DNA from: Ignavibacteria bacterium
Lineage (GTDB): Bacteria > Bacteroidota > Ignavibacteria > Kapaibacteriales > Kapaibacteriaceae
Assembly: GCA_016191145.1 (NCBI GenBank)
Contig: JACPPD010000015.1
Location: 7,291 to 71,290, forward strand
Length of the DNA stretch: 64,000 nt
Reading direction: 5' to 3'
The notes beneath the pieces are model-generated. The model was not told the origin of the DNA, did no database searches, and saw only the letters and a list, made by a program, of their open reading frames with translations. Shown here one piece after another: positions 7,514 to 43,505 of the stretch. Position numbers and translations under genes: made by a program. Positions within the stretch are counted from its first letter, which is position 1. Every line of letters begins with the position of its first letter.

Positions 7514-7586
7514 AGCCGACGACCAGACTTGAACTGGTGACCTGCTGATTACAAATCAGCTGCTCTACCAACTGAGCTACATCGGC
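7514..7586 (-). tRNA. tRNA-Thr (anticodon TGT), CCA not encoded
   Basis: Minus strand GCCGATGTAGCTCAGTTGGTAGAGCAGCTGATTTGTAATCAGCAGGTCACCAGTTCAAGTCTGGTCGTCGGCT folds as a full cloverleaf. Confidence 0.97.
7543..7586. repeat. Left att core (44 bp; 5' half of tRNA-Thr through the anticodon arm)
   Basis: tgctgattacaaatcagctgctctaccaactgagctacatcggc, identical to 43462-43505. Confidence 0.96.
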
Positions 7587-7748
7587 ATCATCATCGTGTG
7601 CTGGATCAAGTGTTTTGCGTCATACCGTAACCTGTCTATTTGCATGGACTTAGAGGAACCCGTGAGCCTCCGTGTCTCCGAGCGCCAATCGTCAACGATG
7701 CCGCCTATGACACCAAACCGGCGATAGACCGACAATAGACACCCAATA

Positions 7749-7770
7749 AATGGCTGCAAAGTGGCTGTAA
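7749..7770. promoter_or_regulatory. Putative integrase arm-type binding sites (left)
   Basis: aatggctgcaaagtggctgtaa nearly identical to 43404-43424 at the other end. Confidence 0.65.
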
Positions 7771-7788
7771 TTTTTTGACGGCTTTTGT

Positions 7789-8961
7789 TCATGCTGACTT
7801 CCACATCTTCTCAATTTTCTGTCGCAGCTCATGCGGCTCGAGCTTGAGGTAGTGACGCTCAAGAACCGGCGCACTACAGCGGGCCAGACGCGAGGCTTCG
7901 AAAATACTGAGGTCCGTTCCGATGCGGCGCACGACGCGGGAAATATACGTCTTCTTGAATTCATGCCAGCTGCGGTTGTTGCGCTCGATGCCGGCCCTGT
8001 GCATCACCTCATAGAGCGTTCGCCGCAGGCGTGAGTCCGACGTGCTATGATAGCCTAGAATGGCGTCGTGAGGCTTCTGAACACCGTTTTCCTGGGCAAT
8101 ACGCGCAAGCAAGGCGATGTCGTCGCCGGTCAGAGGAATGTATTCCCATGTCCGTGCGTCCTTGCGTTCAACGCGAATGGTCATCGCCGTCGTATCGATG
8201 TCTTCGCGTTTGAGTGCCAGTGCCTCGTGTAACCTCAGCGGTGTTCGTGCCAGAACAGCAATGATGTGCCCGACTTTGACCTGCGATTTCGGTGCTGAGG
8301 GACGCCGGCAGATGGCCAGCATCGCCTCGATCTCTGTGTCGGTGTAGATCTGAACAGGCTTGCCAGGCCGATGGGGCATCATCTTGCGGATGGTGCTGGC
8401 GCGAGGAACGATCGGCATCAACCCTTCACGATTGGCCCAATTGCAGAACACCATGAACGTGCGCAGGTAGATGGCCACCGATTCGATGGTAATCGATCCG
8501 GTCGGCGTCTGGCATGTTCTGACCAATTCGGCCATTGCCAGCTCGGCCGTCGAGCACTGCACAGAGCCACGAACCACAACACGGTTCACCGGATCGTGGG
8601 CGTTACCATGGCAGATGACGGCCTGCCAGGCAAGCTTGTAGTTCCTCAGGCTGGCCCGTGAACGCCGAGCGCCATGGTCGGCAAGGAATCGCTCGAAGGC
8701 CTCAGCAAGGGTTATGGCCGCTGTCGTGTCGCGAACGACGCCACGAGCAATCTGCCAACGGCGTATGAGGTCTTCGAGCATGCGACGTGCCGACATCCAG
8801 CCATGCGGAGAGGCCACGATGCCGGTGGCAATGTCACGCGGGATGTTCAGGTCGCGGGCCACACGACGTGGCAGGCTGATATACAGGCGCTTGGACGTCT
8901 GCCGCTCATAGACCGAACCCATCGACGCCGAATGGCGGCGCGCTTTTGCCGAAGGTTTCAC
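7789..8961 (-). CDS. Tyrosine recombinase (integrase)
   Basis: Box I LARTPLRLHEALALKREDID, box II SWHEFKKTYIS...LERHY, SAM-like core-binding region; next to att. Confidence 0.9.
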   Translation of the reverse strand: MKPSAKARRHSASMGSVYERQTSKRLYISLPRRVARDLNIPRDIATGIVASPHGWMSARRMLEDLIRRWQIARGVVRDTTAAITLAEAFERFLADHGARRSRASLRNYKLAWQAVICHGNAHDPVNRVVVRGSVQCSTAELAMAELVRTCQTPTGSITIESVAIYLRTFMVFCNWANREGLMPIVPRASTIRKMMPHRPGKPVQIYTDTEIEAMLAICRRPSAPKSQVKVGHIIAVLARTPLRLHEALALKREDIDTTAMTIRVERKDARTWEYIPLTGDDIALLARIAQENGVQKPHDAILGYHSTSDSRLRRTLYEVMHRAGIERNNRSWHEFKKTYISRVVRRIGTDLSIFEASRLARCSAPVLERHYLKLEPHELRQKIEKMWKSA

Positions 8962-9314
8962 CGTAGCGTCTCCTCAGATGACACGTCGGGCGGCAGGTGC
9001 CATGGGCACGGCGCCTCAGCGCCGCAACAGAAATCATAGCCGTCGTTTGGCGCGTGTGACCACACACAGCCAAGGCCCGTGACGACCCAGCGGGAGTTGA
9101 TACCATGGCTCTCGAGCACCTGTAACACAGAGATCGACGGCAACGATTCGCCATTGATCCAACGGTATAGTGTTTTTGGATACTCGTCTAGCGCGTCAGC
9201 AGCCGCAAGCACCGTACCATACTTCATGAGAACCAGCCACCTCAAGCGCGCACCAACTTCCGAGTCGATTGTCTTAAGACGAAACATGGAGAATGACATC
9301 CCTATAGGATTCAT
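8958..9314 (-). CDS. XRE-family HTH repressor (start uncertain)
   Basis: GARLRWL...AAADALDEYPKTLYRWINGESLPS...INSRWVVTG HTH pattern; divergent from xis-like gene. Confidence 0.75.
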   Translation of the reverse strand: MNPIGMSFSMFRLKTIDSEVGARLRWLVLMKYGTVLAAADALDEYPKTLYRWINGESLPSISVLQVLESHGINSRWVVTGLGCVWSHAPNDGYDFCCGAEAPCPWHLPPDVSSEETLR

Positions 9315-9340
9315 GTGGATAACTTTTAATTGTGGCAGTA

Positions 9341-9372
9341 TTGACAATGACGCTGTTGTCACACTACGTTTG
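9341..9372 (+). promoter_or_regulatory. Putative early promoter with overlapping palindromic operator
   Basis: TTG at 9341 and TACGTTTG (TAnnTTTG) at 9365-9372; inverted repeat TGACAA-N8-TTGTCA at 9342-9361. Confidence 0.55.
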
Positions 9373-9480
9373 TACCGAGTTGCGGAGTTAACCGGCAATA
9401 GAGTGTCAGTAATGCCACGCACAGATAGCCGGCAAACTACGAGGATTGAGAGCAACCAAAAACACGGGATTCTACGCAAT

Positions 9481-9852
9481 ATGGGACGCCCATCAAGAAC
9501 AGGATCGCACCGCCATTCACTTCTTCTTCTGAGGGAAGAAGCTGCAAAGTTGTTGGGTGTCGGCAACGATGACTATGTCAAATTCCTGGTCGAAGAAGGA
9601 TACCTACGCGCCGTCTCCTATCGCTCGATGTCTTTTTACCATCGCGATGATATTATCAATCTGACACGCCAGGCTCTCAAGGTCGGATGGATGCCGACTG
9701 AAGATAAACCGTGGCCTGTCAATTATGCGGAGTACACCCCATGCCTGAATACGGCAACGCCAACGATCCATCCTCTGACCCTCGTCCACAAGACGAAGAG
9801 ATCAACGTCGCTGAAGAAAATTCAGAACTTCCTCAGGACTCCGACGACGTAG
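9481..9852 (+). CDS. Excisionase-like/MerR-type HTH protein
   Basis: LLREEAAKLLGV...LVEEGYLRAV...YHRDDI matches the Xis/HTH_17 pattern. Confidence 0.7.
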   Translation: MGRPSRTGSHRHSLLLLREEAAKLLGVGNDDYVKFLVEEGYLRAVSYRSMSFYHRDDIINLTRQALKVGWMPTEDKPWPVNYAEYTPCLNTATPTIHPLTLVHKTKRSTSLKKIQNFLRTPTT

Positions 9853-10395: not shown

Positions 10396-10950
10396 ATGAT
10401 GACGCCGGACGTCCGAGGCCAGAGCGCTGGCAGCATTAATACGGTCACTGAGGACGCATCAGAGACTTTGGATCTACCGAAACCCTTTATCAAGGGGTGG
10501 GAAATAGAGTCGATCCTTAAGCGATCAGGGTACCTGCGTTCCGAGGCCGCTATCCTGTGCAGTATGAATCCAAAGACGTTTCGTGAGCGCATCTCAAAAA
10601 CCCATTCCACAGTCTTTCCGCAGAAGTTGACCGATCAGCTGCGTATCAGAATTGGAACTGACGTCTTCGACGCTGCACTCCATGAAATACGCAGTGGCAC
10701 CCGCTCGACGCTCTGGGTCAACGGTGAGGAACTGCTGTCGATGCTGCGCTATTATGGGTGGTCAAATTCGTATTACGCCAAGCGCCTAGGTAAAAGCGCT
10801 TCCTGGGTCTCGAGTACCCTCCTGTTCGGCAACTATCAGTCTGCCGTACCCATCCGGTGGGTTTCTGCCACACGCAAGCTTCTCAGCCTTGAGCGATTCG
10901 ATTCGATTCTGGCCGGCATCCGACGCATTGCTTCAGGAGTAGAGCAATGA
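10396..10950 (+). CDS. Putative DNA-binding protein with two HTH-like units
   Basis: AGGAGG SD; SEAAILCSMNPKTF and YYAKRLGKSASWVS helical repeats. Confidence 0.6.
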   Translation: MMTPDVRGQSAGSINTVTEDASETLDLPKPFIKGWEIESILKRSGYLRSEAAILCSMNPKTFRERISKTHSTVFPQKLTDQLRIRIGTDVFDAALHEIRSGTRSTLWVNGEELLSMLRYYGWSNSYYAKRLGKSASWVSSTLLFGNYQSAVPIRWVSATRKLLSLERFDSILAGIRRIASGVEQ

Positions 10951-11333
10951 GGCAGACAACACTGTCATGTTTTAATGGTATAGAGGCAGGCCGCGAGATC
11001 TGTGAGCTTCAGCAGTGGCATACCCATCTGATGCTCGGAATGCTCTCTCATACCCGCCTAACGATGGGAATGGAGTTGTTTGCGGCACAGATTAAACGTA
11101 AAACACAGCCTGATCATGAAGGGGTGTTGTCAGTCAAAGCATTTCATGCCATCATGGAACGATGTCGCAAGGCAGTCCGCACATTCCATGTACATGGATC
11201 GCTGTCGAACGACAGATCGTTTATTGTAAAAGTCAAAGGATGCTGGGACGCCGAAGAAGCGTCCTATCTGGCGCTCATCACACTTTCTGCGATCGACTCG
11301 ACAGCTTCTATAGCGGAGATCCATGAAATCTAA
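10947..11333 (+). CDS. Hypothetical protein
   Basis: ATGA-coupled ORF in the early operon. Confidence 0.6.
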   Translation: MRQTTLSCFNGIEAGREICELQQWHTHLMLGMLSHTRLTMGMELFAAQIKRKTQPDHEGVLSVKAFHAIMERCRKAVRTFHVHGSLSNDRSFIVKVKGCWDAEEASYLALITLSAIDSTASIAEIHEI

Positions 11334-12336
11334 CATCAATATGGATCTGTTAACACTGGTCCGTTTCGAAGAGCGTGATACGCCACCCCAGGAACGTCTG
11401 GTTTATCTGGCGCTGCTCGTTAACAAACACGTGCATGAGTCTGGCTTTTATGAAATCGGCATCAAGGCACTGAAGCGCCTCACCGGCTTGACGGATGAAG
11501 AACTGACGATAGCACTCGAGAACCTTGAGCAGGCCGGTTTTATCGTCTACGACAGGCCATGGTTGTATATCGAGCAGGTCAGAACGGCATTTCACTGGCT
11601 CATGTTTCATGGCCGCGAAAGCCAGGCTCACGAGCTTGTCAGGCGGCACTCCATTGTGCTCAACGACAACAGGGCCTGGCAGTCGTGGGTTAGATTTACC
11701 AGCATCATGCTCGGCGACGATATGCCGAAAATTGGTGCGCGGCCTGCCGTAAAGATTTTTTTTCAGCCCTTTCAGGATGTCGAAGACCGGCCTGATGATG
11801 CTGAAACCACCAAGTCCCATGATGTGCTCTCGGCAGCATCACTACTGCCTATGCAGCGGGTAACGACCCCCTCTCTACCCCATAGGCAGGGGGTAACGAC
11901 CCCCTCTCTACCCGATAAGCAGGGGGTAAGCACCCCCTCTCTACCTGATAAGCAGGGGGTAAGCACCCCGTCTCTACCCGATAAGCAGGGGGTAAGCACC
12001 CCATCTCTACCCGATAAGCAGGGGGTAAGCACCCCATCTCTACCCGATAAGCAGGGGGTAAGCACCCCATCTGTACCCCCTGCCGATACCCTACCTACCC
12101 CGTCTATACCCCCTGCTGATACCGTAGCTATACCATATCAATACCCTGACGATCCCGTTAATACCTTCCAAAAAGCTCTTATACCCCCTACCTATGGGGT
12201 AAGCACAGGGTACGTACCCCCACCTAAGACTAATACTACTCTTCTTTCTGTAGAAAGAGAAGAGGGGGTGCGGGGGGGAAGAGAAAACAACGACGACGAA
12301 CCAAATCATTCAACCGACGAGGATACACTGCCATGA
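11323..12336 (+). CDS. Putative replication initiator (N-terminal winged HTH) with internal repeats
   Basis: LVYLALL...SGFYEIGIKALKRLTGL...ALENLEQAGFIVYD resembles phage initiator wHTH; 11-aa repeats TPSLPDKQGVS. Confidence 0.65.
   Translation: MKSNINMDLLTLVRFEERDTPPQERLVYLALLVNKHVHESGFYEIGIKALKRLTGLTDEELTIALENLEQAGFIVYDRPWLYIEQVRTAFHWLMFHGRESQAHELVRRHSIVLNDNRAWQSWVRFTSIMLGDDMPKIGARPAVKIFFQPFQDVEDRPDDAETTKSHDVLSAASLLPMQRVTTPSLPHRQGVTTPSLPDKQGVSTPSLPDKQGVSTPSLPDKQGVSTPSLPDKQGVSTPSLPDKQGVSTPSVPPADTLPTPSIPPADTVAIPYQYPDDPVNTFQKALIPPTYGVSTGYVPPPKTNTTLLSVEREEGVRGGRENNDDEPNHSTDEDTLP
11853..12083. repeat. Seven 33-bp tandem repeats, candidate iteron origin
   Basis: Unit gcagggggtaagcaccccatctctacccgataa starting at 11853, 11886, 11919, 11952, 11985, 12018, 12051; each holds a GGGGT-N4-ACCCC-type palindrome. 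Confidence 0.85.
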
Positions 12337-12911
12337 GTCACCTCAAAGCCCCTATGCCGCTTCGCACGGCGTTTACATTTTGCTCCCCTGCTGATGGATC
12401 GGCGATTGTTTCGTTCGATGCCAACGAGAGCCTCCCTGAGACCGTTAATCCGATGTGGGCTAGCCTACAGAGCGCTGAGTTGCTCGGAGATTGTAGCTAC
12501 ACACACCGCCTCCGCGAGTTGCAGGGCTGGTCGGTGAGCTCACGCCTTGCCTGGATGGCTGTCGTCCTGTGCTTGTGGCCACATCAGGTCCCCGTGTGGG
12601 TGCCGCAGTCTGCGGAGGTTTGCCTGTGTGTTTGGCAGTGGATGCGCAGACGCTATTTCGTTTTCCATGAGGGTGTCGCCGAGGTAACCCTCTTTGCGCA
12701 CTGGACGGCTGTCAACGAGCTCAACGCCGCATTTCTCGATGACCTGGGAAGGTTTACCACCGATGAGGAGCGCCTGACGTACCTCAAAGCTTTTTCGACA
12801 GAGCGCCGCAAAACACCGAGTGGTTATCGCCGCACGCGTCAGAAGCGGCGCCTGATGGTGAGGAAAACGTCGGATATGATCAACATGATCGACAGAGGGG
12901 AGATGAGCTGA
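12333..12911 (+). CDS. Hypothetical protein
   Basis: Coupled ORF in the early operon. Confidence 0.6.
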   Translation: MSHLKAPMPLRTAFTFCSPADGSAIVSFDANESLPETVNPMWASLQSAELLGDCSYTHRLRELQGWSVSSRLAWMAVVLCLWPHQVPVWVPQSAEVCLCVWQWMRRRYFVFHEGVAEVTLFAHWTAVNELNAAFLDDLGRFTTDEERLTYLKAFSTERRKTPSGYRRTRQKRRLMVRKTSDMINMIDRGEMS

Positions 12912-13552
12912 TGCATACCGCCCCCCCCCTAACAACAGAGATCATGACCGACGCAGAGATCAAGCGGTGGCTCAACGCGCTGGCACGTGACTTACAGGTG
13001 TTGCGCCATGAGGTTCATGACGCTGAGTTCTGGGATGAGATTCGAAAACGCCTGTTACGCGCCGGCTACCGCCATAGCCGTGCTGCGTCGGCAGCAGAGT
13101 GGATCATCCGTGGTGAGAGGCGCTACAAGAGGACGACGACGTATCAGGATTTCTACCCAACACGAGAGATGCTCGAGTCACTGGAATTGACGCTGATACC
13201 CGTGTCGTCGCTGCACCGGCTGTTGGCCGAACAGCGGGAGCGCCTCCGACGTGAATATGACGACGAGATCTTACGCCGTGAGCAGCAAGATCCTGCATTC
13301 TCAGAACGACGACGCGACACCGTCGAGGCCGCACGCATGCAGTTGCAAGCTCTCGACGCCTTGAACGCGATGTCGGATCTGAGAGCTGAACTGGCGGCGC
13401 GCCAGCACGATATCACACGCCTGCAAGCTCAGATAGAATCGCTCAAGGCTGAACTTCGCTTGCTCAGGCAGCAGAGAGGCTGGAAGCATCAGTCGGAGGC
13501 GAGCCTGGAAGCTCTCAGACAAGAAGAGCTCGCGGCAGGGGGTGCGCTATGA
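12911..13552 (+). CDS. Hypothetical coiled-coil protein
   Basis: Coupled ORF; heptad-rich C-terminal half. Confidence 0.65.
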   Translation: MHTAPPLTTEIMTDAEIKRWLNALARDLQVLRHEVHDAEFWDEIRKRLLRAGYRHSRAASAAEWIIRGERRYKRTTTYQDFYPTREMLESLELTLIPVSSLHRLLAEQRERLRREYDDEILRREQQDPAFSERRRDTVEAARMQLQALDALNAMSDLRAELAARQHDITRLQAQIESLKAELRLLRQQRGWKHQSEASLEALRQEELAAGGAL

Positions 13553-13794
13553 GTCACGGCGTCAACACGACAGCAGACGACGGCGCGACAAGCTGTGTGC
13601 ACCATCACACCGAAACGATCATCTGCCCATATTGCAACGCCGATAACGGCGTGCTCAAACACAGTAGACACGACTCTATTTCGGCATATCTGTGCCGTTC
13701 ATGCAAGCGCTATTTCCGTATCGTAATTGAAAAGAACCACGTCTTTACGACTGCACCCCTAGGCAATAACGGCAACAACGGGAGTTCGTCATGA
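13549..13794 (+). CDS. Small zinc-ribbon protein
   Basis: CPYC...CRSC. Confidence 0.65.
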   Translation: MSHGVNTTADDGATSCVHHHTETIICPYCNADNGVLKHSRHDSISAYLCRSCKRYFRIVIEKNHVFTTAPLGNNGNNGSSS

Positions 13795-14390
13795 CAGTGC
13801 TGGAAAAAGGGAAATTCATCGTTGGCGCCTCAGTGCTAAGGGAACACACTGCCCGACTTCATGGGATGTTGACACTGGTCAAGAACCTGGAACAACGATC
13901 GCCCGACGACAACACTCTGCGCGTAGTTTGCGCTGAATTTAGATCACTCGTCCGTAACTTTGAGAATATTCTAAACGTTGCCGGTGCTGAAACCTACCGG
14001 ATACGAAGTCGTCTGAAAAAAGAAGCGGCTCAACAGCAGAAGACGTCTGAAGCTACAACCACGGGCGCGCAGGCACAGAGTCTGCTGTCGGCAGAGTTAT
14101 TAAGGTGGCTCATAGGCAAAGGAGGTATCAAAGCAGGCTCGCAAAAGTGGGACGCCACACTGCCGGTGATGATGATGCCTTCAAAAGTCTTCATTGCAAC
14201 CGTCATGGCCCTTGTCGACCAGATATCGCTCATCAGCCATCAAGGGAACGCTCCCGATGACCCGCACGATATCATCGATCGTACGGAATTTCTGAGTCAG
14301 CTTTTTGAGACACACTTTTATAAATTGACGGCTAATCAATACATGCAGGATTACGAGCAGCCACCAATTTTTGAGTTGAACAAGGAATGA
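13791..14390 (+). CDS. Hypothetical protein
   Basis: Coupled ORF, helical composition. Confidence 0.6.
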   Translation: MTVLEKGKFIVGASVLREHTARLHGMLTLVKNLEQRSPDDNTLRVVCAEFRSLVRNFENILNVAGAETYRIRSRLKKEAAQQQKTSEATTTGAQAQSLLSAELLRWLIGKGGIKAGSQKWDATLPVMMMPSKVFIATVMALVDQISLISHQGNAPDDPHDIIDRTEFLSQLFETHFYKLTANQYMQDYEQPPIFELNKE

Positions 14391-15624: not shown

Positions 15625-15680
15625 AGCGACGTCGAGGGTATAGCTGCTTTGGGCGTCCCTTTACTCATGGCCACGAACGC

Positions 15681-22708: not shown

Positions 22709-22750
22709 ATCAGCTCTCGTATTTTTCTGTGCGTGTGATAGAAATTGGTG

Positions 22751-23840: not shown

Positions 23841-23851
23841 CTTGTGAACTC

Positions 23852-25709: not shown

Positions 25710-25818
25710 ATCAGGGTTCCTTTATGAAAAGTGAAAAGAGTAGAGGCATTTTTACAGCCGCCTCTTGTGTGATAGTGCTGAGTACTGTTGTTGCCATTAA
25801 GGCTATGACGAAGTGCGG

Positions 25819-27493: not shown

Positions 27494-27517
27494 CGTCGTA
27501 ACTCCAATTGTTGAATG

Positions 27518-32110: not shown

Positions 32111-32114
32111 GATA

Positions 32115-32546: not shown

Positions 32547-32570
32547 AACTCCAGTGAAAGTGAGATCATG

Positions 32571-35500: not shown

Positions 35501-37889
35501 GACTCTGAATAACTGAGATGCGCGCCGCCGAGGGCGTGCCGCCACTGGTCAACATCGACGAGAAGAGGGAGTCGATACCACTTTCTAATACTTGTAGGTT
35601 TCCTATGGTGTTCGTTGCCATGCCGTCAGCAAAATTTGAGATTGCCCCACGGACGTCAGCAAGCGCACCGCTGGCAATACGGTTTAGTTCGGCAAAGGCA
35701 TTAGACGTCCATTTTATTTCGTCAGCGAACGCTTCGGCAGCTAGGTCTGTGAGCTCTGGGACTGCGGTGTTGATGGCCGAGGCGATGTTAAAAACTTTCT
35801 GCGGGAACGGTCCAGGTTTGTTGAATACCGTTGTTACACGGTAAGCACCGTCGGCATAACGCGCCATATCCTGGTAGACTGCTTTGTCGACGCCGAACAG
35901 GGCACCGCCTTTGTCGCCGGCAAGTGTTGCCAATGACGTCCCCAACTGGGCCAGGAATCCAAAGGCATTGAGAATATCGATAGAACCCTGCCGGTACGCT
36001 TTCTGGGCTGTCTGAAGTGCTGAGGCTACGACCGTCCCTGCACCAGGGATAACGAGATTCAGCGCCCCTCCGAGGATACCTGCCAGCCCAGCGATGATGT
36101 CAATACCACTTTGTGGCTCACCGGTGAACACGATGACGACGGTGCGATTTTTGAGGGCATCGGCGCGTTTTTCGAGCTCTGTCAGCAGCTTGAACAGAGA
36201 GAGTTCCGGAACGGTTTCGGCTGGTGAGTTCGGGCTAAGGCGACGTGTTCCCATACGCAGCGAGGCTGCGACAGCGCCGAGGCTGTCACGGCTTATCTGG
36301 GTAGCCCATGTCCACTCATCGGGCGCAAACATCTGGGCGATACGTTCAGCATAACCACCACCGACGCCACCGGGCAGTGCCGTACGGTCAATCGTGATGC
36401 GATACGGGTTAGGTCCCCAGAGTTGCAAACGCTCGGCAATGTTATAGAGCATCGACGTTTCCACTAGCGGCATAACCGTTACGGCCCCTGCCTTCATCAT
36501 CGGGAACTGTGCATGGGCCTCCTGGTAGCGCTGTGTGTAGCCGCGACTCGAAAAATCCTCTATCTTGATCGCAGAGCTCATGAGGGCCTCGCGGGCGCCG
36601 CGGTCAGCTCTGACGTCGTCCATCGTCAGGATGGAACCTGTACCGATGCGCAACGTCGTGGCAGCTGAGTCACAACATCCTTTGATGATATACTCAGGAC
36701 AGGGTTTTCCTACAGGCTGGTTAGGACTAGTCTGTGTCGTCGTCGTCCCCGTGCCGGCGCTCTTCCAGCGGACGTAGCAGCCTCCGACGGAAAACTCACG
36801 TCCCTCTTTGGGATATTTCGTTGTCTCGACAAGGTTGTAATCGCCGGCCTTAAGGGAGACAAGTTTTCTGCCCGCTTCAGTTTGAATTTCGGCTATAACG
36901 TCAGTTGTTAACCTCCACGGTGAGTATCCTGTCGTGTCGTTAGGTTTCGGAATGTTGGCACATGTTGTCGTTGACCCTTGCGGCGGCGGCGGCGGTGGCG
37001 AGACGCTTTGCTTCAGGCGTATCGGCACCTTGACGTCGAGGCAAAGCGTAACATCGTCGTCGAACTCATCAACAGGTTCACACAACGCTGACAGGTTGGC
37101 GAAGTACCACCCCGACGGGCGATGGTTGCCATAGGCAGCAGCGCGTGACGAGATAACCCAAGCGCGGTCGTCCAAGTCGGTGTATCCTGTCGCTGTATAG
37201 CGCACGAGGGCAAATCCAAGCCTATTAGTGCCGTTGCCTGTCGTCGAGGCGTTGGCCTCAATTGTCTCTATCCAATTGTCCGTCTCTCGTTTGGCAGTGA
37301 TGACGATGCCGGCATGGTTGGTCTTACCGTTGTCGGACTGCCTCATGAACAGGGCACCTACCGTAGGGTCACGGCTCAGCTGATCGGGGACAAGCCTGTA
37401 GAGCTCTTCGAGGGTGTCGTAGACATTCCCATACAGTGTCCGCTCTTTGTTGGCGCTTGTCGGACTCGGCGTCGTCGGCACGAGAATGCCTTGACAGGGG
37501 GCGCCATGGCGCTGTGCAATGGCCTGCGCCTGGTTCAGGATGAGAGAGGCCCCGACCATGCAGTAGTACCCATAATTACCATAGGGATGGTAACATGCCC
37601 ACAGATCAGTGATCCACCGGTCTGAGTTGTTCGTTGTAGCCTCTTCAAATCCAGCATCGGCATAGGCTACAGCCAGCAGGACAATGAGGCGCTGCATGAC
37701 CGACACGTCATCCCCCAGTGGCGCTGCGGCAACAGTTGACGCCGAAAGCCCAGATGGACGCTGCTGCCCACTCACCGGCAATCGTCGTTGCATCGTTTCA
37801 AACCGTTGTATCACGCTGTCGGGAGTGAACTGAGCGTTGTCATGGCGAAAGGATGGTTCATAGCGGTGCATCATCGGTGTCATGTCCAC
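32571..37889 (-). CDS. Giant protein: N-terminal CHAP-like domain, helical hydrophobic middle, segmented coiled-coil
   Basis: YYCMVG...NHAGIV...TIEAN (C-H-E); repeated xDTxxL coiled-coil segments. Confidence 0.8.
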   Translation of the reverse strand: MDMTPMMHRYEPSFRHDNAQFTPDSVIQRFETMQRRLPVSGQQRPSGLSASTVAAAPLGDDVSVMQRLIVLLAVAYADAGFEEATTNNSDRWITDLWACYHPYGNYGYYCMVGASLILNQAQAIAQRHGAPCQGILVPTTPSPTSANKERTLYGNVYDTLEELYRLVPDQLSRDPTVGALFMRQSDNGKTNHAGIVITAKRETDNWIETIEANASTTGNGTNRLGFALVRYTATGYTDLDDRAWVISSRAAAYGNHRPSGWYFANLSALCEPVDEFDDDVTLCLDVKVPIRLKQSVSPPPPPPQGSTTTCANIPKPNDTTGYSPWRLTTDVIAEIQTEAGRKLVSLKAGDYNLVETTKYPKEGREFSVGGCYVRWKSAGTGTTTTQTSPNQPVGKPCPEYIIKGCCDSAATTLRIGTGSILTMDDVRADRGAREALMSSAIKIEDFSSRGYTQRYQEAHAQFPMMKAGAVTVMPLVETSMLYNIAERLQLWGPNPYRITIDRTALPGGVGGGYAERIAQMFAPDEWTWATQISRDSLGAVAASLRMGTRRLSPNSPAETVPELSLFKLLTELEKRADALKNRTVVIVFTGEPQSGIDIIAGLAGILGGALNLVIPGAGTVVASALQTAQKAYRQGSIDILNAFGFLAQLGTSLATLAGDKGGALFGVDKAVYQDMARYADGAYRVTTVFNKPGPFPQKVFNIASAINTAVPELTDLAAEAFADEIKWTSNAFAELNRIASGALADVRGAISNFADGMATNTIGNLQVLESGIDSLFSSMLTSGGTPSAARISVIQSLLTTSPDPSIIQTKAGSQDIFGRLLSLPATWLSDVTDATVHNAMASVASGRRIIDGALDQLTMDSLLYQAEDFARQKWAFDVPMTIAKDKRECMAREIAVCIGTQTCSGVVTTSGGKTSGETSQPSGSGGADAGSETSVLPPCVIQLSPSTFQYCEPPACRQTTLETASIQLVNQNGGPYLVVATRPVGSTEWSDFKVQDLMPSGNDWVLAPTLPQAMTAEQPTSSAFEATRSQQGQPISPGGVSETASNADGCAGRYEARRDGQGRWTANIGGEWLFLSVGCCPTREAPAVRQTQATAICCPEIRAIDAKLVELQKSIADLTLQWRQQSTATSTTTTASSAPRDEVVFDLGVPTEELPPGVAPLRPCCDLNPVIKILRQLPQLVVQAMNSENLPQIPTTTLTTTTQAGTVAASSPEVTQGQAADLETLQTSISRLERIIESIVPTSPCDNSEVLTELSKIEALLQRSVVQYDDTLLQKKVDAILDILTKKGDTSGASSSTSTAGTTTSQTDTTVLETVLREMQATQKLYRETIEQLTAYIDSRVTVMDTETLRTELQTQTELIRELREIVISGTALDTTAIERELTRLVELVRILVERDRQQTVSVPETATASTATVVAEACTCTDSVLRSAVGELREILRLLPDVRSSLREVQTAVETGFRELRRQMEEHTTLLQTLVMARETALATGQRDDLSAIETLLETHRSELRSIIERNATASTTCDLTELRLMLTAISATTMESRRDIVALVSRIDTLLTSFTSGQESTAEGGATTSSQGQQRLVCDTTAIAEAVTNSNSIVELRQMMTQILERLSQGGGVVTATVDTRALEAKLDTILQAVRDAAAYDDTDLVAAIDRLLKDRSAETLSQKIDLLLSREPQTQTGFEAVLQQLAAMRSRIEELASQRQQQATAVVEDVSKTGSTRQESSYTSRLPGGGTNCPDCPAYIERHERIFNRYPIVLPAGPPQGLDPECENC

Positions 37890-38932
37890 CAGTTAATCGC
37901 TGTGGCTTGATCTTCTTTGTTGCGGACAACCTGAAAGGGCTGCGGTGGCCTCACGGCGGCGACTTTTGCTGCTCGTTTCTTCTGCGATACCGGTACGATG
38001 ACCATACGATCCTGTGGTACGTCGTAGCGCACCGGCTGGATGACATCACGGTCTGCCGGCACATCATAGCGTACCGGCTGCGTGACGGCACGGTCTGCCG
38101 GCACATCATAGCGCACCGGCATATACGAGGGTTCCCGGACGATCTGACGCACGAGGCGTTCTACAGGCTGCACGATCGTACGTACCACCGGTGGCAATTC
38201 CTTGATGACTTCCAGGATCCGGTCGACAAAGACAGGGCGTTCGATGATGCGTTCTACCGGCGGCGGCGCTTCCGACCCCGCTGCCACGATGTCTGGTGCT
38301 TGTGTTTTGAGGGCTGGGTGCGCAGCACGAGCTGTGGCAGCGGGCTCCCCTGTCGGGCTTTGTCGGTAATATGATGTGTCTGCGTCAGAAGGCAGCGACT
38401 CGAGGTAGGCGCCTGCGTCTATCGAAGGTGAAAATGTCGGTGTCTGCTCAAAAGTCGGCGTAAAGGTATGCGATGGGCTCGCCTCAATCAGTGGGCTGAA
38501 GCTTGGACTCTGCTCCATCGTCGGGTTATGTTCGAGCGTCGGGTTATACTCAAGCGTTGGATTGTGTTCAATCGTCGGGCTGACGTTGATACGGGCACCT
38601 TCGATGATCGGATTTACGGTAACGCTGATGACGTTGGGCTGCGTTGAGGCTGTAGTAGCAGACGGCGTGCTACCTCCTCCCCACTGTGAGGCGTTGTGGC
38701 AGCGCTGACAGCGTCCACATCTACATGCTTGCTCTGGCCTGTTGTTGGGCTGCTGCTGCGGCGCTGACCATGGTGCGCCTCCGACGACAGGCATCATCGG
38801 CATCGCAGGCATGCCAGGCGGACTGGCCTGGAGCTCTACAGCAGAGGCATCTGTGACCGGTGCTGGCACCAGCTCAGGAATGTAGCGGCCAATGGTGACA
38901 ACATCATCTTCTAATGTGACTATTTTACTCAT
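37880..38932 (-). CDS. Proline-rich repeat protein
   Basis: CRCGRCQRC; hexapeptide HNPTLE repeats; three 11-aa QPVRYDVPADR-type repeats. Confidence 0.75.
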   Translation of the reverse strand: MSKIVTLEDDVVTIGRYIPELVPAPVTDASAVELQASPPGMPAMPMMPVVGGAPWSAPQQQPNNRPEQACRCGRCQRCHNASQWGGGSTPSATTASTQPNVISVTVNPIIEGARINVSPTIEHNPTLEYNPTLEHNPTMEQSPSFSPLIEASPSHTFTPTFEQTPTFSPSIDAGAYLESLPSDADTSYYRQSPTGEPAATARAAHPALKTQAPDIVAAGSEAPPPVERIIERPVFVDRILEVIKELPPVVRTIVQPVERLVRQIVREPSYMPVRYDVPADRAVTQPVRYDVPADRDVIQPVRYDVPQDRMVIVPVSQKKRAAKVAAVRPPQPFQVVRNKEDQATAINWWT

Positions 38933-39207
38933 GAGGTCGTGCGTTTCCTTTTTCGTGACGCTTTCGTCGATGTCCGTCCAAGGCTATACCCACCATAAGC
39001 AACGAGCGTAAAGATCATGAGACCGCCGACAAGGATCGGAACGGTCTTCTCTTTGATGTTTGCCAGCACTCCTTCCTGGCATAGTCGTTCAAATTCCGAT
39101 TGTGTCGACTGCTCGACGGATTCGGTGACGCTCTTGCCGGCAAAGACGTTCGTTAGCGCCCTACTCAGCAGCGATTCAAAATTGATCTGTGATGTTGGCG
39201 TTGCCAT
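38929..39207 (-). CDS. Small single-pass membrane protein with basic tail
   Basis: TM VPILVGGLMIFTLVAYGGY then RKRKR. Confidence 0.7.
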   Translation of the reverse strand: MATPTSQINFESLLSRALTNVFAGKSVTESVEQSTQSEFERLCQEGVLANIKEKTVPILVGGLMIFTLVAYGGYSLGRTSTKASRKRKRTTS

Positions 39208-39264
39208 AGCAGTGTACGAATTGTTGGAGCTCGTGACGTGTCAATGATTACTGTGCGCCCGTCT

Positions 39265-39489
39265 TCAGTAGGTATATGGTGGTGTCGTCGACTGCTGCTG
39301 CTGCTGCTGGTTTCCCACCATCGTTGCGGCTTTCTCCAGTCCGAAAGCTCCGGCGATGGCGCCGACGGCAGCCACCCCAGCCTTAGCGCCCAGAGAAATC
39401 GGTTTTTTGTTGACCTTCATTTTCGAGCCGAGGAATACAGCGGCGAGAGCTCCAAGGCCGGCGCCAATTATTTTTTTGTCGATAGTCAT
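39265..39489 (-). CDS. Small Gly/Ala-rich two-TM protein
   Basis: GAGLGALAAVFLG and AGVAAVGAIAGAFG; polyQ tail. Confidence 0.7.
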   Translation of the reverse strand: MTIDKKIIGAGLGALAAVFLGSKMKVNKKPISLGAKAGVAAVGAIAGAFGLEKAATMVGNQQQQQQSTTPPYTY

Positions 39490-39532
39490 CGTTGTCTTTC
39501 GTGAAAGTGAGAAAGTAGTCGTTTTCTGCCGA

Positions 39533-40060
39533 TCAAATTTTCAAATACACGGAACGCCGCTCTGGTGTCTGCTCGCGTCCGAAGCCATCTTTTTTCATGA
39601 CACAGTCTATCGGGAAGAAGCCCTGTGGCACCTGGACCCAGTTGTACACATGAGTAAATGCTCGCTTGCGCCATGCCAACGCCTTGAGATAGGACGTGAG
39701 GCCTGCGGCCTTCAGAAGACACGCCATAAGCGTTGACAGGTCATCGCAATCGCGCCATGGATAAGTCTTATCATATTTACGTGACAGCGTATGCCGAGGA
39801 GCTTTGACAGCCTCGTATTCAGCAGGGTCTTTGACGTAGGGGAACCGGTCTGTCATCCAGTCCCACAGGGCATAAGCAGTATCTAGTGGACGCTTTTGGC
39901 GTACTCCTTCTACGACGGCCAAAATTTCGGGATTGCCGGCATCCTGGCGGGCTAAGTCGCGCATGATGTAGAGCGTCTGGTAGATGCCACCATCGGAGGG
40001 CAACTGTGTAATCTCACACAGACGGGCATCGTCGGATATCGTCGTACACGTTTTCGTCAC
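39533..40060 (-). CDS. Transglutaminase-like cysteine protease
   Basis: YVKDP...E...P, RDCDDLSTLMACLL (Cys), FTHVY (His), PID (Asp). Confidence 0.85.
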   Translation of the reverse strand: MTKTCTTISDDARLCEITQLPSDGGIYQTLYIMRDLARQDAGNPEILAVVEGVRQKRPLDTAYALWDWMTDRFPYVKDPAEYEAVKAPRHTLSRKYDKTYPWRDCDDLSTLMACLLKAAGLTSYLKALAWRKRAFTHVYNWVQVPQGFFPIDCVMKKDGFGREQTPERRSVYLKI

Positions 40061-40078
40061 ATCATCATTTGGCTTTTG

Positions 40079-40420
40079 TCAACATGGGGGCTTCGTGTGG
40101 GGGCGTTCACGTTCTAAGTTTCTTACGCGATTTTCGATGTGCATGATCGACTTTTCAAGCTCGGCGATGACACGAATCGACGACTTGATTTCGATGACAT
40201 CGGATCGAACGCCGTTGTATTCCGATGTCATCCTGGTCAGCTCAATCTTTAGGTTGAGAATCGTATCGTCGAGATCATGAATTGTTTGGTCTGTCGCCTG
40301 CGTGCGGCTTCTCTTCTCTGCTGACATTGCTACCAATGCCGTTACAACCGATGACAGCATCGAGAGCACCGTCAAACCAAGCAAGAGAAGATTCACACTG
40401 CCACCTAGATAGTCACTCAT
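40079..40420 (-). CDS. N-terminal TM plus coiled-coil protein
   Basis: Hydrophobic residues 10-32 then heptads. Confidence 0.7.
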   Translation of the reverse strand: MSDYLGGSVNLLLLGLTVLSMLSSVVTALVAMSAEKRSRTQATDQTIHDLDDTILNLKIELTRMTSEYNGVRSDVIEIKSSIRVIAELEKSIMHIENRVRNLERERPHTKPPC

Positions 40421-40430
40421 GGTTTTTTTC

Positions 40431-41219
40431 TCAAAGCCCCTTCGTCACACCGGCACGAAGGGCTGCTCCTGCCGTTTTGTTAGCATTAAGCTCCATGGCT
40501 TTGCGGGCGATGACATATAAAAGCATTGCTGTGCCCCCAATGACAACCACTGGTATGGCAATAGAGGCAATGCGTGTTGTTGTTGAAATCGAGCCGGCAA
40601 CTTCACCAGGCAGAGACACGAGGTTCAGGAAGCTTCGTCCGATAGAGCATAGGAAGCCGCATGGCTTATTATCAGATTCTTCACTGGCGGCAGATGCCTG
40701 CGACTGTTCTGCCACGGCCTTTGCCGCCTGGGCAGCTTGTTGTTCGTTGGGCGTGAGTTTCGTCAGCGTGCTCTCAGGAACAAGCCACCGTGGGTGTATT
40801 TGCTGTGGCGTACCGGTGACACCGTAGTAGAGCTCACGCAAGATGATCTTGATCGTCTCCGGCGGCGGTGCTTCACTGCCAAGATCATATTGGATGGCGA
40901 CAACATTTTCGTTTGTAGCCCCAATGTTGGAGGGGTTTGGGCTCGGGACCTTGTTTGCAGCGCGGAGCCCGTTGTACGAGCTAACAGTTGCCCCTACCTG
41001 ACTCTTGGTGACGTATTCGTCACCTGACGTATCTAAGCGTTTGTTTTCGTTATAGTTGGCACGAGCCCAAACGAGCTGTACCATCTCATTCCACGTGTTG
41101 GCATACGTCGGCGTACCTTCAAACCATGAGTAAGGAAGAAGACCACTCAAGCGTTGCCCCGAGATGCTGACGGCAGTGCCATCAGTAGCGTCATTTGGGA
41201 GTGTCGTGATAAAAGACAT
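40431..41219 (-). CDS. Protein with C-terminal TM anchor
   Basis: Likely ATG at 41219 (MSFITT); CGFLC; TM IAIPVVVIGGTAMLLYVIA then RK. Confidence 0.7.
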   Translation of the reverse strand: MSFITTLPNDATDGTAVSISGQRLSGLLPYSWFEGTPTYANTWNEMVQLVWARANYNENKRLDTSGDEYVTKSQVGATVSSYNGLRAANKVPSPNPSNIGATNENVVAIQYDLGSEAPPPETIKIILRELYYGVTGTPQQIHPRWLVPESTLTKLTPNEQQAAQAAKAVAEQSQASAASEESDNKPCGFLCSIGRSFLNLVSLPGEVAGSISTTTRIASIAIPVVVIGGTAMLLYVIARKAMELNANKTAGAALRAGVTKGL

Positions 41220-41397
41220 AGCGCCTGTGTAATTCAATGAATAGGATTGGCAGTGCTGCGCTGACAACGAGCGTCAGAGCAGGATTCTCCTTAAGAATCG
41301 TGTTTAACCGCTTCCAGAACGAATCGTGCTGTTTGCCGTGACCGTCATGGAGTGTTGCAGAAGCTGTCGTCTTGCGTCGGCGTTTTTTCGTTCTCAT
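41191..41397 (-). CDS. Small basic membrane protein
   Basis: MRTKKRRRK, one TM; first ORF of the long minus-strand operon. Confidence 0.55.
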   Translation of the reverse strand: MRTKKRRRKTTASATLHDGHGKQHDSFWKRLNTILKENPALTLVVSAALPILFIELHRRYVFYHDTPK

Positions 41398-41472
41398 TCA
41401 AAATCAAATGATCCATAACCATGACACCGTGTGCTTGTCGTAGATATTTCGCACTCATTCTCTTCTAGAAAA

Positions 41473-41547
41473 CAGCGCGAAGACGTAGGCGAGAAAACCT
41501 CCGTTCGGGTGAAAGTCTTTTTCTCCGAACGGAGGATGTTCGCGCTG
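41473..41547. other. Strong hairpin in the late-operon leader
   Basis: cctccgttcgg (41498-41508) pairs with ccgaacggagg (41525-41535); cagcgcgaa pairs with ttcgcgctg. Confidence 0.7.
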
Positions 41548-42070
41548 CGGGGTGGTGGGTGTCACCCGTGCCATGGGAGAAAACGAGGCATGAGGTAGAC
41601 CGCGTGATGCTGACCGAAGAGTAGGGGTGGTGGGAGAATCGATTGGCATCGCAGACAAAAACCGATGTGGTGTCAAAAGCCAAAGCACGGCTAAGTAATG
41701 ATGAGGACACGGCGCTGAATACTACATATCCGTCTTGTATACTGTTCATGCACGTTGTCAACTTAGTGTGGATGTGTGAATCGGTGAGATCGCCAGTGCG
41801 CTGCCGAGAGGGGACACGTGCGGCGTTCTGTCTTCTCTCCTTCAACAAAGGGTGTGGTGAAAGCCTTACCTGCTGGAAGGGTATCAAAGAACCCGCGATG
41901 TAATCTACAATCGGAAAATGAACGATACCTAACAGCTAGAGTATTATGCGGCTGTTCCGTTCACATTACGCACTATTTTTTTTAATAGGACAAAACAAAC
42001 GACAGATAGTGCGACCTTGGACCAATCGATAGCGCGTCCTGTGCGTGCATGGGGCGACGCGATGCACGCC

Positions 42071-42292
42071 TCACTTCGATTTCCGATTCTCTTCATGAAT
42101 GACGTTCTTTGCTTCCTGTAGGGAACAGTAAAACCCAAGGAAACGCTCGTTATAATATACTTGATAAGGACAATGGTTGCCTACAACCCTGCCGACTACA
42201 CGACCGCTTTGATGTGTACAAGCATAGTATTGGCCATAATAATGATACCACTTCAATGCCTCATCATGAAATTCAGGACTGTTCATTGCCAT
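42071..42292 (-). CDS. Small hypothetical protein
   Basis: Coupled to the upstream ORF; Tyr-rich. Confidence 0.45.
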   Translation of the reverse strand: MAMNSPEFHDEALKWYHYYGQYYACTHQSGRVVGRVVGNHCPYQVYYNERFLGFYCSLQEAKNVIHEENRKSK

Positions 42293-43152
42293 TAGGTACC
42301 TTCCTCATCGACAAAAGACCAGTCCAAAGATTTGATCGCGATGCGTTGATATTCATCTCCGACATAATGACCAAAAAGGGAGACGGCACGTGAGGCGGCA
42401 GCAGCATAAGTAACCGCTAGATGGGCACGCCTGATACATAGTTGTGAGAGAATATTACTACTGCCCACCAAGGCGATAGAGCGAACAATATTGCTTGCCG
42501 CATAGGTCGCAAAGGGTTGGCCATATTCTGATCGTGCGTTTGCACATGAAACGACCATACCTGGAAATAGATGCGTTAATTTTTCTCTAGAAATTTCACG
42601 ATGCAAATACTTTTCTGCCTCATCAAGCGCATCAAGCACATACTCATCAGGTATCAAATTCAAAACGGTGCCTCGCAGCGTAGGTGTGTTTCGGACAAAG
42701 TCAAGGGCTAAGCGAACGAATTGATCCTCAGACCGAAGCATGAGCGACGTCTGTAAAAGTTCTATGTCTTCACAGTAGTTGATAGCCTCAACGAACGTAT
42801 CGAATTGGGAGGCATAGTCAATCAACTTCGACGGCATCGCGTGACGAAAAAGCTTTTTTAGGTGATTTCTGTTGTAATCGATGACTCGCGGCGACGCAAT
42901 AGCTCGCTTAATGATTTCCTGCACAAGTATTGCTATGTATGGTTCTTCTTGGGATTTGAAGATCAAAATATCCTGATAATTGTAGATGAGCCAGCGCGAT
43001 TTGAAATAGCGGACCATACCACCAAATACTTGCTCGAGGAACCAGATCCCATAAATGGAAGTTCCATCGAGGTCCACGACAAGTTTCTTACCGGCAGCGG
43101 CGGCTTCGAGGAAGGCACCGATCAACACGTTTTCTCGTAGCTCTTGGGCCAA
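42292..43152 (-). CDS. STAS-like (DUF4325-type) domain fused to a helical domain (start uncertain)
   Basis: LVVDLDGTSIYGIWFLEQVFGGMVR resembles the DUF4325 motif. Confidence 0.6.
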   Translation of the reverse strand: MAQELRENVLIGAFLEAAAAGKKLVVDLDGTSIYGIWFLEQVFGGMVRYFKSRWLIYNYQDILIFKSQEEPYIAILVQEIIKRAIASPRVIDYNRNHLKKLFRHAMPSKLIDYASQFDTFVEAINYCEDIELLQTSLMLRSEDQFVRLALDFVRNTPTLRGTVLNLIPDEYVLDALDEAEKYLHREISREKLTHLFPGMVVSCANARSEYGQPFATYAASNIVRSIALVGSSNILSQLCIRRAHLAVTYAAAASRAVSLFGHYVGDEYQRIAIKSLDWSFVDEEGT

Positions 43153-43403
43153 TTTCTTTTCCAGATCGCTATATGGCGGCCCATGATCAACAGCAAACTC
43201 ACGAACGGCCAGATACAGGGCCTCCCCGGTGTGCTTGGCACTGTGTGGCCGTCGAGTGTGTTGCCTTTGCCGTTCTGGTCGGCAGCAGAAATCTCTGGCA
43301 TCGCCGTGTGCTCTCTCAGGGAGTGTGGTGGTTCATCGCGCAGTTGGGTCTCGGTCGAGCAGCCTGTGTGTAGTGCCCTGGGACGAACATACACAAAAAA
43401 GGG

Positions 43404-43424
43404 AATGGCTGCAAATGGCTGTAA
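43404..43424. promoter_or_regulatory. Putative integrase arm-type binding sites (right)
   Basis: aatggctgcaaatggctgtaa matches 7749-7770. Confidence 0.65.
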
Positions 43425-43461
43425 AAATCGATCTAAGTAGCTGGTTTATAACGTATCGTGT

Positions 43462-43505
43462 TGCTGATTACAAATCAGCTGCTCTACCAACTGAGCTACA
43501 TCGGC
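43462..43505. repeat. Right att core (44 bp; truncated 5' half of tRNA-Thr)
   Basis: Identical to 7543-7586; no T-arm or 3' acceptor strand follows. Confidence 0.96.

Follow-up and report, generated by a model that had tools for sequence, protein, structure and literature searches.

What kind of mobile element is integrated at a tRNA-Thr gene, carries an integrase and several lytic enzymes, and has none of the hallmark genes of tailed phages or conjugative elements? The question is raised by a locus in the genome of an Ignavibacteria bacterium of the Kapaibacteriaceae (GenBank assembly GCA_016191145.1, contig JACPPD010000015.1), of which a stretch of 64,000 nucleotides (positions 7,291 to 71,290 of the forward strand), hereafter the window, was analysed; the element lies between positions 7543 and 43505. 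Kapaibacterium has been placed in the Bacteroidota, within the FCB group, and an earlier note on this DNA had proposed a new temperate, tailless, membrane-containing, Varidnaviria-like virus in an FCB host. The comparisons presented here point, with a probability of about 0.7, to a temperate, distant relative of the Salisaeta phage SSIP-1. The tailless, internal-membrane part of that proposal is supported by homology to an isolate of this type with a Bacteroidota host, whereas its novelty has to be qualified, since the element has relatives and SSIP-1 is a known, though unclassified, isolate. The element belongs to a conserved provirus group in Kapaibacterium- and Ignavibacteria-type bacteria and is most likely a variant of a kind known from one orphan isolate rather than a categorically new virus.

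SSIP-1 is described in reviews as an unclassified, tailless, icosahedral virus of ~100 nm with a T=49 capsid, an internal membrane, two types of major capsid protein (MCP) and a 44-kb circular double-stranded DNA (dsDNA) genome. The reviews group it by capsid architecture with the P23-77-like viruses, and review statements name gp40 as its predicted packaging ATPase and report hardly any similarity of its genome to GenBank sequences. Its sequence record gives no taxonomy below 'Viruses' and annotates gp34, gp40, gp43, gp45 and gp46 as structural proteins. All 57 proteins of this record were compared with the proteins of the window, and four families were found in common, each encoded in the late operon of the element:

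15681..16355, minus strand: RadA-like P-loop ATPase, 224 aa, homologue of SSIP-1 gp40 (profile versus PDB RadA, E 4.5e-22)
16352..20845, minus strand: DNA methyltransferase plus SNF2/AAA_34 helicase, 1497 aa (PF13872 E 3.2e-15 and Helicase_C; methyltransferase and helicase PHROGs)
30597..31253, minus strand: 218-aa protein of the SSIP-1 gp45/gp46 family (hhalign; 71 representative clusters)
39533..40060, minus strand: protein with a transglutaminase-like Cys protease fold, homologue of SSIP-1 gp34 (PF01841 E 1.5e-4, 22.4 bits versus a 23-bit cut-off)

The transglutaminase-like protein aligned with gp34 both by BLASTP (E 2e-14) and by profile (E 1.6e-22); it is the Cys protease of which the earlier note had spoken, with a Pfam score just under the cut-off. 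The 1497-aa protein aligned with gp43 (BLASTP E 6e-21; profile E 2.4e-35) through its methyltransferase domain alone, and gp43 (L017 26863-33822) carries a ParB_N domain (E 2.8e-6) besides its methyltransferase. The ATPase matched gp40 with a profile E of 3.6e-19 (hhalign 98.5%, E 2.5e-15, 177 columns); both proteins are RadA/AAA_25-like, and the match is not exclusive to the SSIP-1 group. A canonical Walker A motif was found in this one real gene of the element only. The absence of an FtsK/A32 ATPase had been correctly noted before, but the RadA-like gene had been missed.

The fourth family concerns the capsid. With the profile of the 218-aa family, the top SSIP-1 proteins were gp46, gp47 and gp45 (57 proteins compared by hmmsearch, 56 by hhalign), which are adjacent structural proteins. 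Against gp46 alone, hhalign gave 9.7% (E 3.3e-3); against gp46 together with its one metagenomic homologue (P0104) the value was 43.5% (E 2.4e-4), and the family alignment of 68 sequences against gp46, P0104 and gp45 reached 78.3% (E 1.8e-5, 143 columns). As controls, 10 other families of the window scored at most 0.3% with the same three-sequence SSIP-1 profile, and 20 column-shuffled copies at most 0.4% (lowest E 0.17); the reversed copy gave 0.1%. The two SSIP-1 proteins are paralogues of each other (hhalign 97.8%, E 1.3e-12; L017 34635-35959). Because of this paralogy, their size and their annotation as structural proteins, gp45 and gp46 are probably the two MCPs of SSIP-1, and the 218-aa protein is accordingly presented as a candidate MCP of the element.

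Both genomes come from Bacteroidota hosts and lack tailed-phage genes, and each has a giant gene with a row of structural or beta-rich genes of 130 to 260 aa behind it, those of the gp45/gp46 type measuring ~210 aa. Predicted transmembrane (TM) proteins account for 7 of 24 products in the SSIP-1 late module (genes 34-57) and 13 of 29 late open reading frames (ORFs) of the element by the same crude scan. On the other hand, just four families are detectably common, at ~23-33% identity or by profile only, and the element is shorter (35.9 kb versus 43.8 kb). Its methyltransferase is fused to an SNF2 helicase and stands apart from the 1772-aa giant protein, whereas gp43 combines a methyltransferase with ParB_N; in place of two gp45/gp46 paralogues it has one member of that family and two unrelated core proteins. 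The element is integrated and possesses an integrase and a repressor-like gene, whereas nothing in the SSIP-1 record is annotated as an integrase, a comparison that concerns annotation only. Habitats differ as well, the probable source of the element being a groundwater metagenome and SSIP-1 being halophilic or hypersaline according to reviews. Finally, SSIP-1 is known as a virion and the element from genes and contigs alone.

The conserved group to which the element belongs became apparent from genome and metagenome comparisons. Among 40 related genomes, three hold distant homologues of the 218-aa ORF (four of 41 when the genome of the element, G000, is counted), and in these three (G013, G019 and G016) the late module is syntenic throughout, at amino-acid identities of 23-47%. 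In an even sample of 401 genomes of the phylum, five carry the 218-aa family (G000 among them), all from one order. The profile of the 237-aa core protein retrieved 20 proteins, all 'hypothetical', whose named sources are Candidatus Kapaibacterium/Kapabacteria or Bacteroidetes metagenome-assembled genomes (MAGs), as well as two IMG/VR viral contigs and five genome contigs, Ignavibacteria- and Kapaibacterium-titled ones among them. Three of the loci (L010, L012 and L013) are apparently the same places as G019, G013 and G016 and were excluded from later counts, and one IMG/VR contig apparently equals the G019 region. Across the seven distinct relative loci, seven ORF matches each were obtained for the 121-, 237-, 246- and 1772-aa families, six for the transglutaminase-like protein, and five each for the 376-, 159- and 218-aa families.

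A more distant element of ~35 kb in G036, a genome of another family in the same order, keeps the whole gene order: integrase, repressor-like gene, initiator-like gene, methyltransferase, helicase plus ATPase, the 121-, 237-, 159-, 218- and 246-aa genes, the giant gene and the transglutaminase-like gene. In this element (L027-L029, C3:400000-459999; joined 15301-19296) a single open frame of 1332 aa takes in the SNF2 helicase at residues 3-1006 and the RadA-like ATPase at residues 1122-1296, whereas the methyltransferase has an ORF of its own. The same late module (giant, 246-, 218-, 159-, 237-, 376- and 121-aa genes) was also observed on a 29-kb contig (L014) of a MAG titled Candidatus Didemnitutus (Verrucomicrobiota), which is either a misbinned contig or a sign of a wider host range.

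An exhaustive profile search of metagenome proteins yielded 71 representative clusters of the 218-aa family at E <=1e-3, 23 of them at <=1e-10; the ten clusters that were looked up, from metagenome contigs as long as 264 kb, are all proteins without a name or called 'hypothetical'. The family alignment (A4, the 68 sequences referred to above) comprises 64 of the 71 clusters, the window protein and three relatives; P0021 and P0022, presumed duplicates of included relatives, and the partial matches P0078, P0079, P0082, P0086 and P0089 were dropped. Compared with PHROGs and Pfam, these 68 members gave no family matched by more than two of them, and neither A4 nor the 237-aa profile (A3) found anything among PDB sequences. 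The 218-, 237- and 1772-aa proteins had no match among 50,697 phage records; the single 218-aa protein had no match in IMG/VR, and the single 237-aa protein retrieved itself only in a word-indexed search. Profile comparison detected no relation between A4 and A3, between the 159-aa family (A6) and A4, or between A6 and A3, and none between the 246-aa family and gp44 or the 237-aa family and gp47. The literature search produced no paper on SSIP-1 relatives or proviruses, and among the papers listed none was relevant on viruses of Kapabacteria.

The temperate nature of the element is seen most directly at its insertion site. A tyrosine integrase placed the element in a tRNA-Thr gene, duplicating a 44-nt core, and the features of the site are as follows:

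7513..7586, minus strand: tRNA-Thr (anticodon TGT), integration target, intact copy beside the integrase end (ARAGORN)
7543..7586, unstranded: attL core, 44 nt, identical to nt 1-44 of the tRNA (direct repeat; single copy in the G002 empty site)
43462..43505, unstranded: attR core, 44 nt, duplicated 5' tRNA fragment (direct repeat and G002 empty site)
7789..8961, minus strand: tyrosine integrase (PF00589 E 1.2e-7; phrog_1 E 2.1e-22; homologue at one end of the G036 element)

The two cores form a perfect 44-nt direct repeat (repeat search, family D3), so that the att cores are identical, and they take in the tRNA sequence from its acceptor stem up to and including the anticodon loop. An uninterrupted site is present in a genome of the same genus (G002), in which the genes that flank the element (5203-7500 and 44052-44939) lie 639 bp apart. 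Positions 109-2539 of that locus (L018) align with window positions 5156-7586 and its positions 2496-5999 with 43462-46965, at 82% and 85% identity. Since these flank alignments overlap each other by exactly the 44-nt core, the insertion measures 35,919 bp with clean attB/attL/attR geometry. The intact att repeats and the integrase that had been read from the sequence alone are hence borne out. The GC fraction of the element is 0.541, compared with 0.483 and 0.485 in its flanks.

The att core corresponds to the 5' part of the tRNA (nt 1-44) instead of the usual 3' part, and the integrase gene and the tRNA have the same orientation. As a consequence of the 5' location, the DNA upstream of the intact tRNA (window 7513-7788) is now element DNA, and transcription of tRNA-Thr may now depend on signals inside the element.

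In the probable source sequencing run, the contig that holds the element has 31,449 nt and a mean word depth of 50.3; the one with the right flank has 20,197 nt and a depth of 34.2. Both contigs break within the att core, and the loose ends at the att core stem from tRNA genes of other organisms. The depth gap hints at extra non-integrated copies or at a mixture of strains, contig depth being no copy number. In a second run (X2), short near-identical contigs cover the right flank only, with almost none over 30000-43400; none of them bridges the site, hence they carry no information on presence or absence.

The genes expected to build a virion are gathered in a late operon of 29 minus-strand ORFs that runs from 41397 to 15217, which agrees with the ~26-kb co-directional operon of the earlier note; 21 of its 28 gaps are <=60 nt, and all ORFs are open. 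All 29 were scanned against PHROGs and Pfam. Terminase, portal, HK97 capsid and tail tube or sheath were matched by 0 of 29 in either database, which speaks against membership in the Caudoviricetes. The late ORFs likewise matched no relaxase, VirB4 or FtsK family. Relaxase, VirB4/TraG and coupling protein gave no Pfam match in the 29 late, 10 early and left-arm and 2 right-arm ORFs scanned, and no tra family of the Bacteroidota was found by Pfam among the late ORFs. The lack of tailed-phage and conjugation hallmarks is thereby confirmed, as are the lysis-type enzymes and, with TM segments in 13 of the 29 ORFs by a crude Kyte-Doolittle hydropathy scan (11 of these <300 aa), the roughly ten small membrane proteins that had been counted before. 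Besides the four genes listed above, the operon contains:

15217..15624, minus strand: last late ORF, weakly J-domain-like (PF00226 E 0.0066; phrog_15863 E 1.1e-7; HPD motif in the translation)
20990..21973, minus strand: basic protein, 327 aa, kept in relatives, no family
22196..23395, minus strand: two membrane proteins, 170 and 214 aa (hydropathy scan), no family
23852..24448, minus strand: GH24 phage lysozyme with a C-terminal TM segment at residues 171-189 (PF00959 E 3.5e-31; phrog_7 E 5.5e-37)
24445..24786, minus strand: membrane protein, 113 aa, between two lytic enzymes (TM segment), no family
24820..25311, minus strand: cell-wall peptidase domain, 163 aa, kept in relatives (phrog_6090 E 3e-7; phrog_16241 endolysin E 0.0029)
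25344..26469, minus strand: variable ORFs, 121 aa and 216 aa, no relatives (ORF maps)
26469..27173, minus strand: CHAP-like hydrolase, endolysin-type, 234 aa, N-terminal TM segment (phrog_21825 E 3.3e-5; 35-47% identity in relatives)
27170..27883, minus strand: three-TM protein, 107 aa (hydropathy scan), and conserved 121-aa protein (family found in relatives)
27880..29010, minus strand: 376-aa protein, charged, heptad-rich by eye, conserved, no family
29108..29821, minus strand: beta-rich core protein, 237 aa (~8 beta segments by crude propensity; 20 homologues)
29822..30301, minus strand: core protein, 159 aa, its stop codon adjoining the start of the 237-aa gene (gap 0 nt)
31370..32546, minus strand: TM protein, 246 aa (hydropathy scan; family in relatives), and 143-aa protein
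32571..37889, minus strand: giant protein, 1772 aa, with an N-terminal Cys/His hydrolase-like region (by eye), one TM segment and a long repetitive C-terminal half
37880..39489, minus strand: Pro-rich repeat protein, 350 aa, and two small proteins (92 aa with a TM segment; 74 aa) (ORF, hydropathy and repeat scans)
40079..41397, minus strand: first late ORFs, 68 aa (TM), 278 aa (C-terminal TM) and 113 aa (TM) (hydropathy scan)

Several of these products can be assigned a provisional role. For both the 218- and the 237-aa family, crude propensities computed from the alignments suggest 7-8 beta segments with helices being scarce, a pattern that is compatible with a jelly roll, the fold on which a Varidnaviria-like label would depend, and is no evidence for one; the 237-aa protein is a candidate second capsid protein. 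The 376-aa protein is a candidate scaffold, and the 113-aa membrane protein at 24445..24786 may be holin-like, judging by its position only. The slot of the variable 121- and 216-aa ORFs, which may encode host-recognition proteins, holds ORFs of 965 to 1265 aa in relatives, the longest in G013 (1265 aa; L005+L006 joined 17809-21606) and the shortest in G019 (965 aa; L007+L008 joined 18103-21000). In the giant protein, residues ~55-1120 are conserved, with 30-35% identity over 900-1240 residues in relatives; it matched no Pfam or PHROG family except TPR_DOCK at chance level, and its residues 1-420 were unmatched in PDB sequences. The 278-aa protein near the start of the operon is conserved in G013 and G019. 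A 19-nt motif occurs three times (15592-15610, 22722-22740 and 23558-23576; repeat family D4) at 79-100% identity near the starts of late minus-strand genes and could act in late regulation or as a promoter. At neither end of the late operon did scans for promoters and terminators rise above shuffle level, and their consensus is unsuited to the host phylum.

The general plan of the element also fits that of P23-77 and the Halopanivirales, which are tailless internal-membrane viruses with circular dsDNA, consecutive genes for small proteins of capsid size and several lytic enzymes. However, the 218-, 237- and 159-aa families lack similarity to VP16/VP17 (best E 0.066), and the ATPase aligns with the packaging ATPase of P23-77 over the P-loop only (35 columns). 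The Halopanivirales are recognised by an FtsK/HerA-type ATPase beside single-jelly-roll capsid genes, an arrangement that was not found by sequence in the element, whose ATPase gene lies 13 kb from the capsid-candidate genes and whose genome is twice as large. A protein language model placed the 218- and 237-aa proteins beside mostly viral unnamed clusters (0.95-0.98; clusters 65-93% viral). Among named families, PM2 P2 was nearest to the 237-aa protein, and PM2 P2 and PRD1 P3 were nearest to the 218-aa one, at similarities of 0.75-0.77 that provide a lead only. In contrast, Pfam gave no P2/P3 match, hhalign gave no signal to PM2 P2, and the packaging ATPase of PM2 shares the P-loop only; moreover, proteins of 218 and 237 aa are shorter than P2 (~270 aa from coordinates), and the genome of the element is ~3.5x larger than that of PM2. 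Sequence comparison therefore does not place the element in the Halopanivirales or the Corticoviridae, considering the lack of VP16/VP17 or P2 similarity and the P-loop-only ATPase match.

Packaged methyltransferase-helicases of the DarB type are known from phage P1, and the large methyltransferase plus helicase of the element offers a parallel to them. The SSIP-1 counterpart gp43 is a virion protein; packaging and an anti-restriction role of the element's protein are putative.

A number of observations weigh against kinship with SSIP-1 or against parts of this reading. The link between the 218-aa family and the SSIP-1 capsid candidates is moderate (78%) and is based on a profile of three sequences; neither the 237-aa nor the 159-aa core protein has a match in SSIP-1, P23-77 or PM2, and even with the limit set at E 10 the Pfam families of PM2 P2 (P2_N and P2_C) detect nothing in the whole genome. 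Domains of the methyltransferase and transglutaminase kinds are widespread and common among mobile elements. As to the ATPase, it is closer to cellular RadA (the E of 4.5e-22 was obtained against 177,635 PDB sequences) than to gp40, and it matches RecA/UvsX-like genes of tailed phages as well as gp40 (tblastn). Its gene is translationally coupled to the helicase, with which it shares one open frame in G036, and the enzyme may serve DNA metabolism instead of packaging; the packaging role is one that we infer from the SSIP-1 literature rather than a result of this analysis. Two matches to tail-annotated PHROGs and the tape-measure size of the 1772-aa protein also count on this side, and they lead to the rival explanations.

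One of these takes the element for a tailed phage so diverged that sequence no longer reveals its genes for terminase, portal, capsid and tail, with the 1772-aa protein as the tape measure. The size and the repetitive C-terminal half of this protein fit such a role, and the peptidase matches a PHROG of tape measures (E 3e-7), the lysozyme one of baseplate lysozymes (E 0.0047). Both matches, however, span the lytic domain only, that of the peptidase corresponding to a peptidase region embedded in the tape-measure family (phrog_6090), and they are the only matches to head or tail families among the 29 late ORFs. Besides the two giants no late ORF exceeds 376 aa, which leaves no room for a large terminase or portal of typical size; the only P-loop gene is RadA-like, and SSIP-1, the sole related isolate, is tailless. 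This explanation is considered very improbable. A non-viral nature is also quite improbable. On that view an integrative element, perhaps one whose transfer apparatus escaped recognition, would have no more than accessory genes in common with SSIP-1 (those for the methyltransferase, the RadA-like ATPase and the transglutaminase-like protein). In its favour, three of the four families shared with SSIP-1 are domain types also found outside viruses, giant methyltransferase-helicases of the AAA_34 type are found on conjugative elements too, and the capsid assignment rests on sequence, not on fold. Yet the 218-aa family, which lacks a cellular or Pfam/PHROG counterpart, specifically matches the annotated virion proteins gp45 and gp46, and the language-model neighbours of the 218- and 237-aa proteins are largely viral; three lytic enzymes are typical of viruses, two relatives are found in IMG/VR, and the transfer genes sought (relaxase, VirB4, coupling protein, Bacteroidota tra families) are missing from every late ORF.

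The remaining rival accepts the viral origin and holds that the element is a cryptic or defective SSIP-1-like provirus, correctly integrated, which has lost particle production. Particles and excision are without direct evidence, since contigs cannot reveal a circular junction, and the 216- and 121-aa ORFs in place of the 965- to 1265-aa ORFs of relatives could reflect the loss of a receptor-binding protein. Against decay, 29 of 29 late ORFs are open and tightly packed, the att cores are identical and every core gene seen in relatives is present; the greater depth of the element contig than of the flank (50.3 versus 34.2) in the probable source run argues in the same direction as a hint only. 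A defective provirus is hence regarded as unlikely, and a temperate relative of SSIP-1 is preferred.

The left arm, the early region and the right arm complete the element, and their features, the integrase aside, are as follows:

8958..9566, minus strand: putative repressor, weak (phrog_2328 E 0.0073; homologue in the G036 element, E 5.1e-6), divergent from the early operon
10396..14390, plus strand: early operon, seven ORFs, including a putative initiator and a Zn-ribbon protein
11323..12336, plus strand: putative replication initiator, weak, DnaD-like (phrog_1701 E 3.7e-5; phrog_3171 E 1.3e-3; match in G036)
11853..12130, unstranded: 33-nt tandem repeats within the initiator gene (TRF, 6.8 copies, 94% match; repeat family D1)
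13549..13794, plus strand: Zn-ribbon protein (Zn ribbon E 2.2e-5)
42071..43152, minus strand: right-arm ORFs, 73 aa and 286 aa, the latter (42292-43152) DUF4325 STAS-like (PF14213 E 2.4e-6)

The lysogeny switch suggested by the earlier note finds a counterpart in the repressor PHROG match and the divergent early operon, with a match that is weak; likewise, the initiator of that note is supported by DnaD-like and replication-initiation PHROGs at weak E values. The 33-nt repeats encode 11-aa repeats in the initiator-like protein and, by analogy with origins located inside initiator genes, are candidate iterons marking an origin. The element contig of the source run ends near these repeats, at a computed position of ~12043. 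Across the seven relative loci the early module had no matches, while G036 gave the initiator match. A 148-aa ORF (14522-14968, plus strand) between the early and late modules begins with a signal-peptide-like stretch followed by Cys, which is lipoprotein-like by eye, and matches no family. The right-arm ORFs lie outside the conserved module, are without counterparts in relatives and are probably cargo.

For a temperate relative of SSIP-1, these features would combine into the following life cycle. The repressor-like gene and the divergent early operon would control lysogeny, and the initiator-like protein with its 33-nt repeats would start replication. The 26-kb late operon, judged from homology and position, would then make the virion, in which the gp45/gp46-type 218-aa protein and the two beta-rich core proteins (159 and 237 aa) would form the capsid and about eleven small membrane proteins the internal membrane. 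The same operon would supply the gp34-type transglutaminase-like protein and the 1772-aa protein with its hydrolase-like N-terminus. The gp43-type methyltransferase-helicase would probably be packaged together with the DNA, blunting restriction, and the gp40-type RadA-like ATPase would drive packaging. At entry and exit the lysozyme, the peptidase and the CHAP-like hydrolase would breach the cell wall; the lysozyme and the CHAP-like enzyme each have a predicted membrane anchor.

SSIP-1 has stood alone since 2012, and the element, its kin and the 71 metagenome clusters provide the first comparative set for this virus type. The set reveals a core of genes encoding the 218-, 237-, 159-, 246- and 121-aa proteins, the giant protein and the transglutaminase-like protein, and it would mean that viruses of the SSIP-1 type can be temperate and live outside hypersaline habitats. 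A wider proposal, possible though doubtful, is that SSIP-1 is no orphan and is instead the only member so far in culture of a widespread lineage of large viruses, mostly temperate, tailless and with an internal membrane, that infect Bacteroidota of the Kapaibacterium and Ignavibacteria types. Their capsids would consist of gp45/gp46-type proteins and lineage-specific partners, and a RadA-like ATPase would package the genome in place of the FtsK/HerA type used by other icosahedral viruses with a membrane. If true, packaging would have been solved separately in this lineage, which would deserve the rank of a new family at least and possibly of a higher taxon. Whether the capsid proteins are single jelly rolls and whether a RadA-like ATPase packages the DNA are questions that can now be tested.

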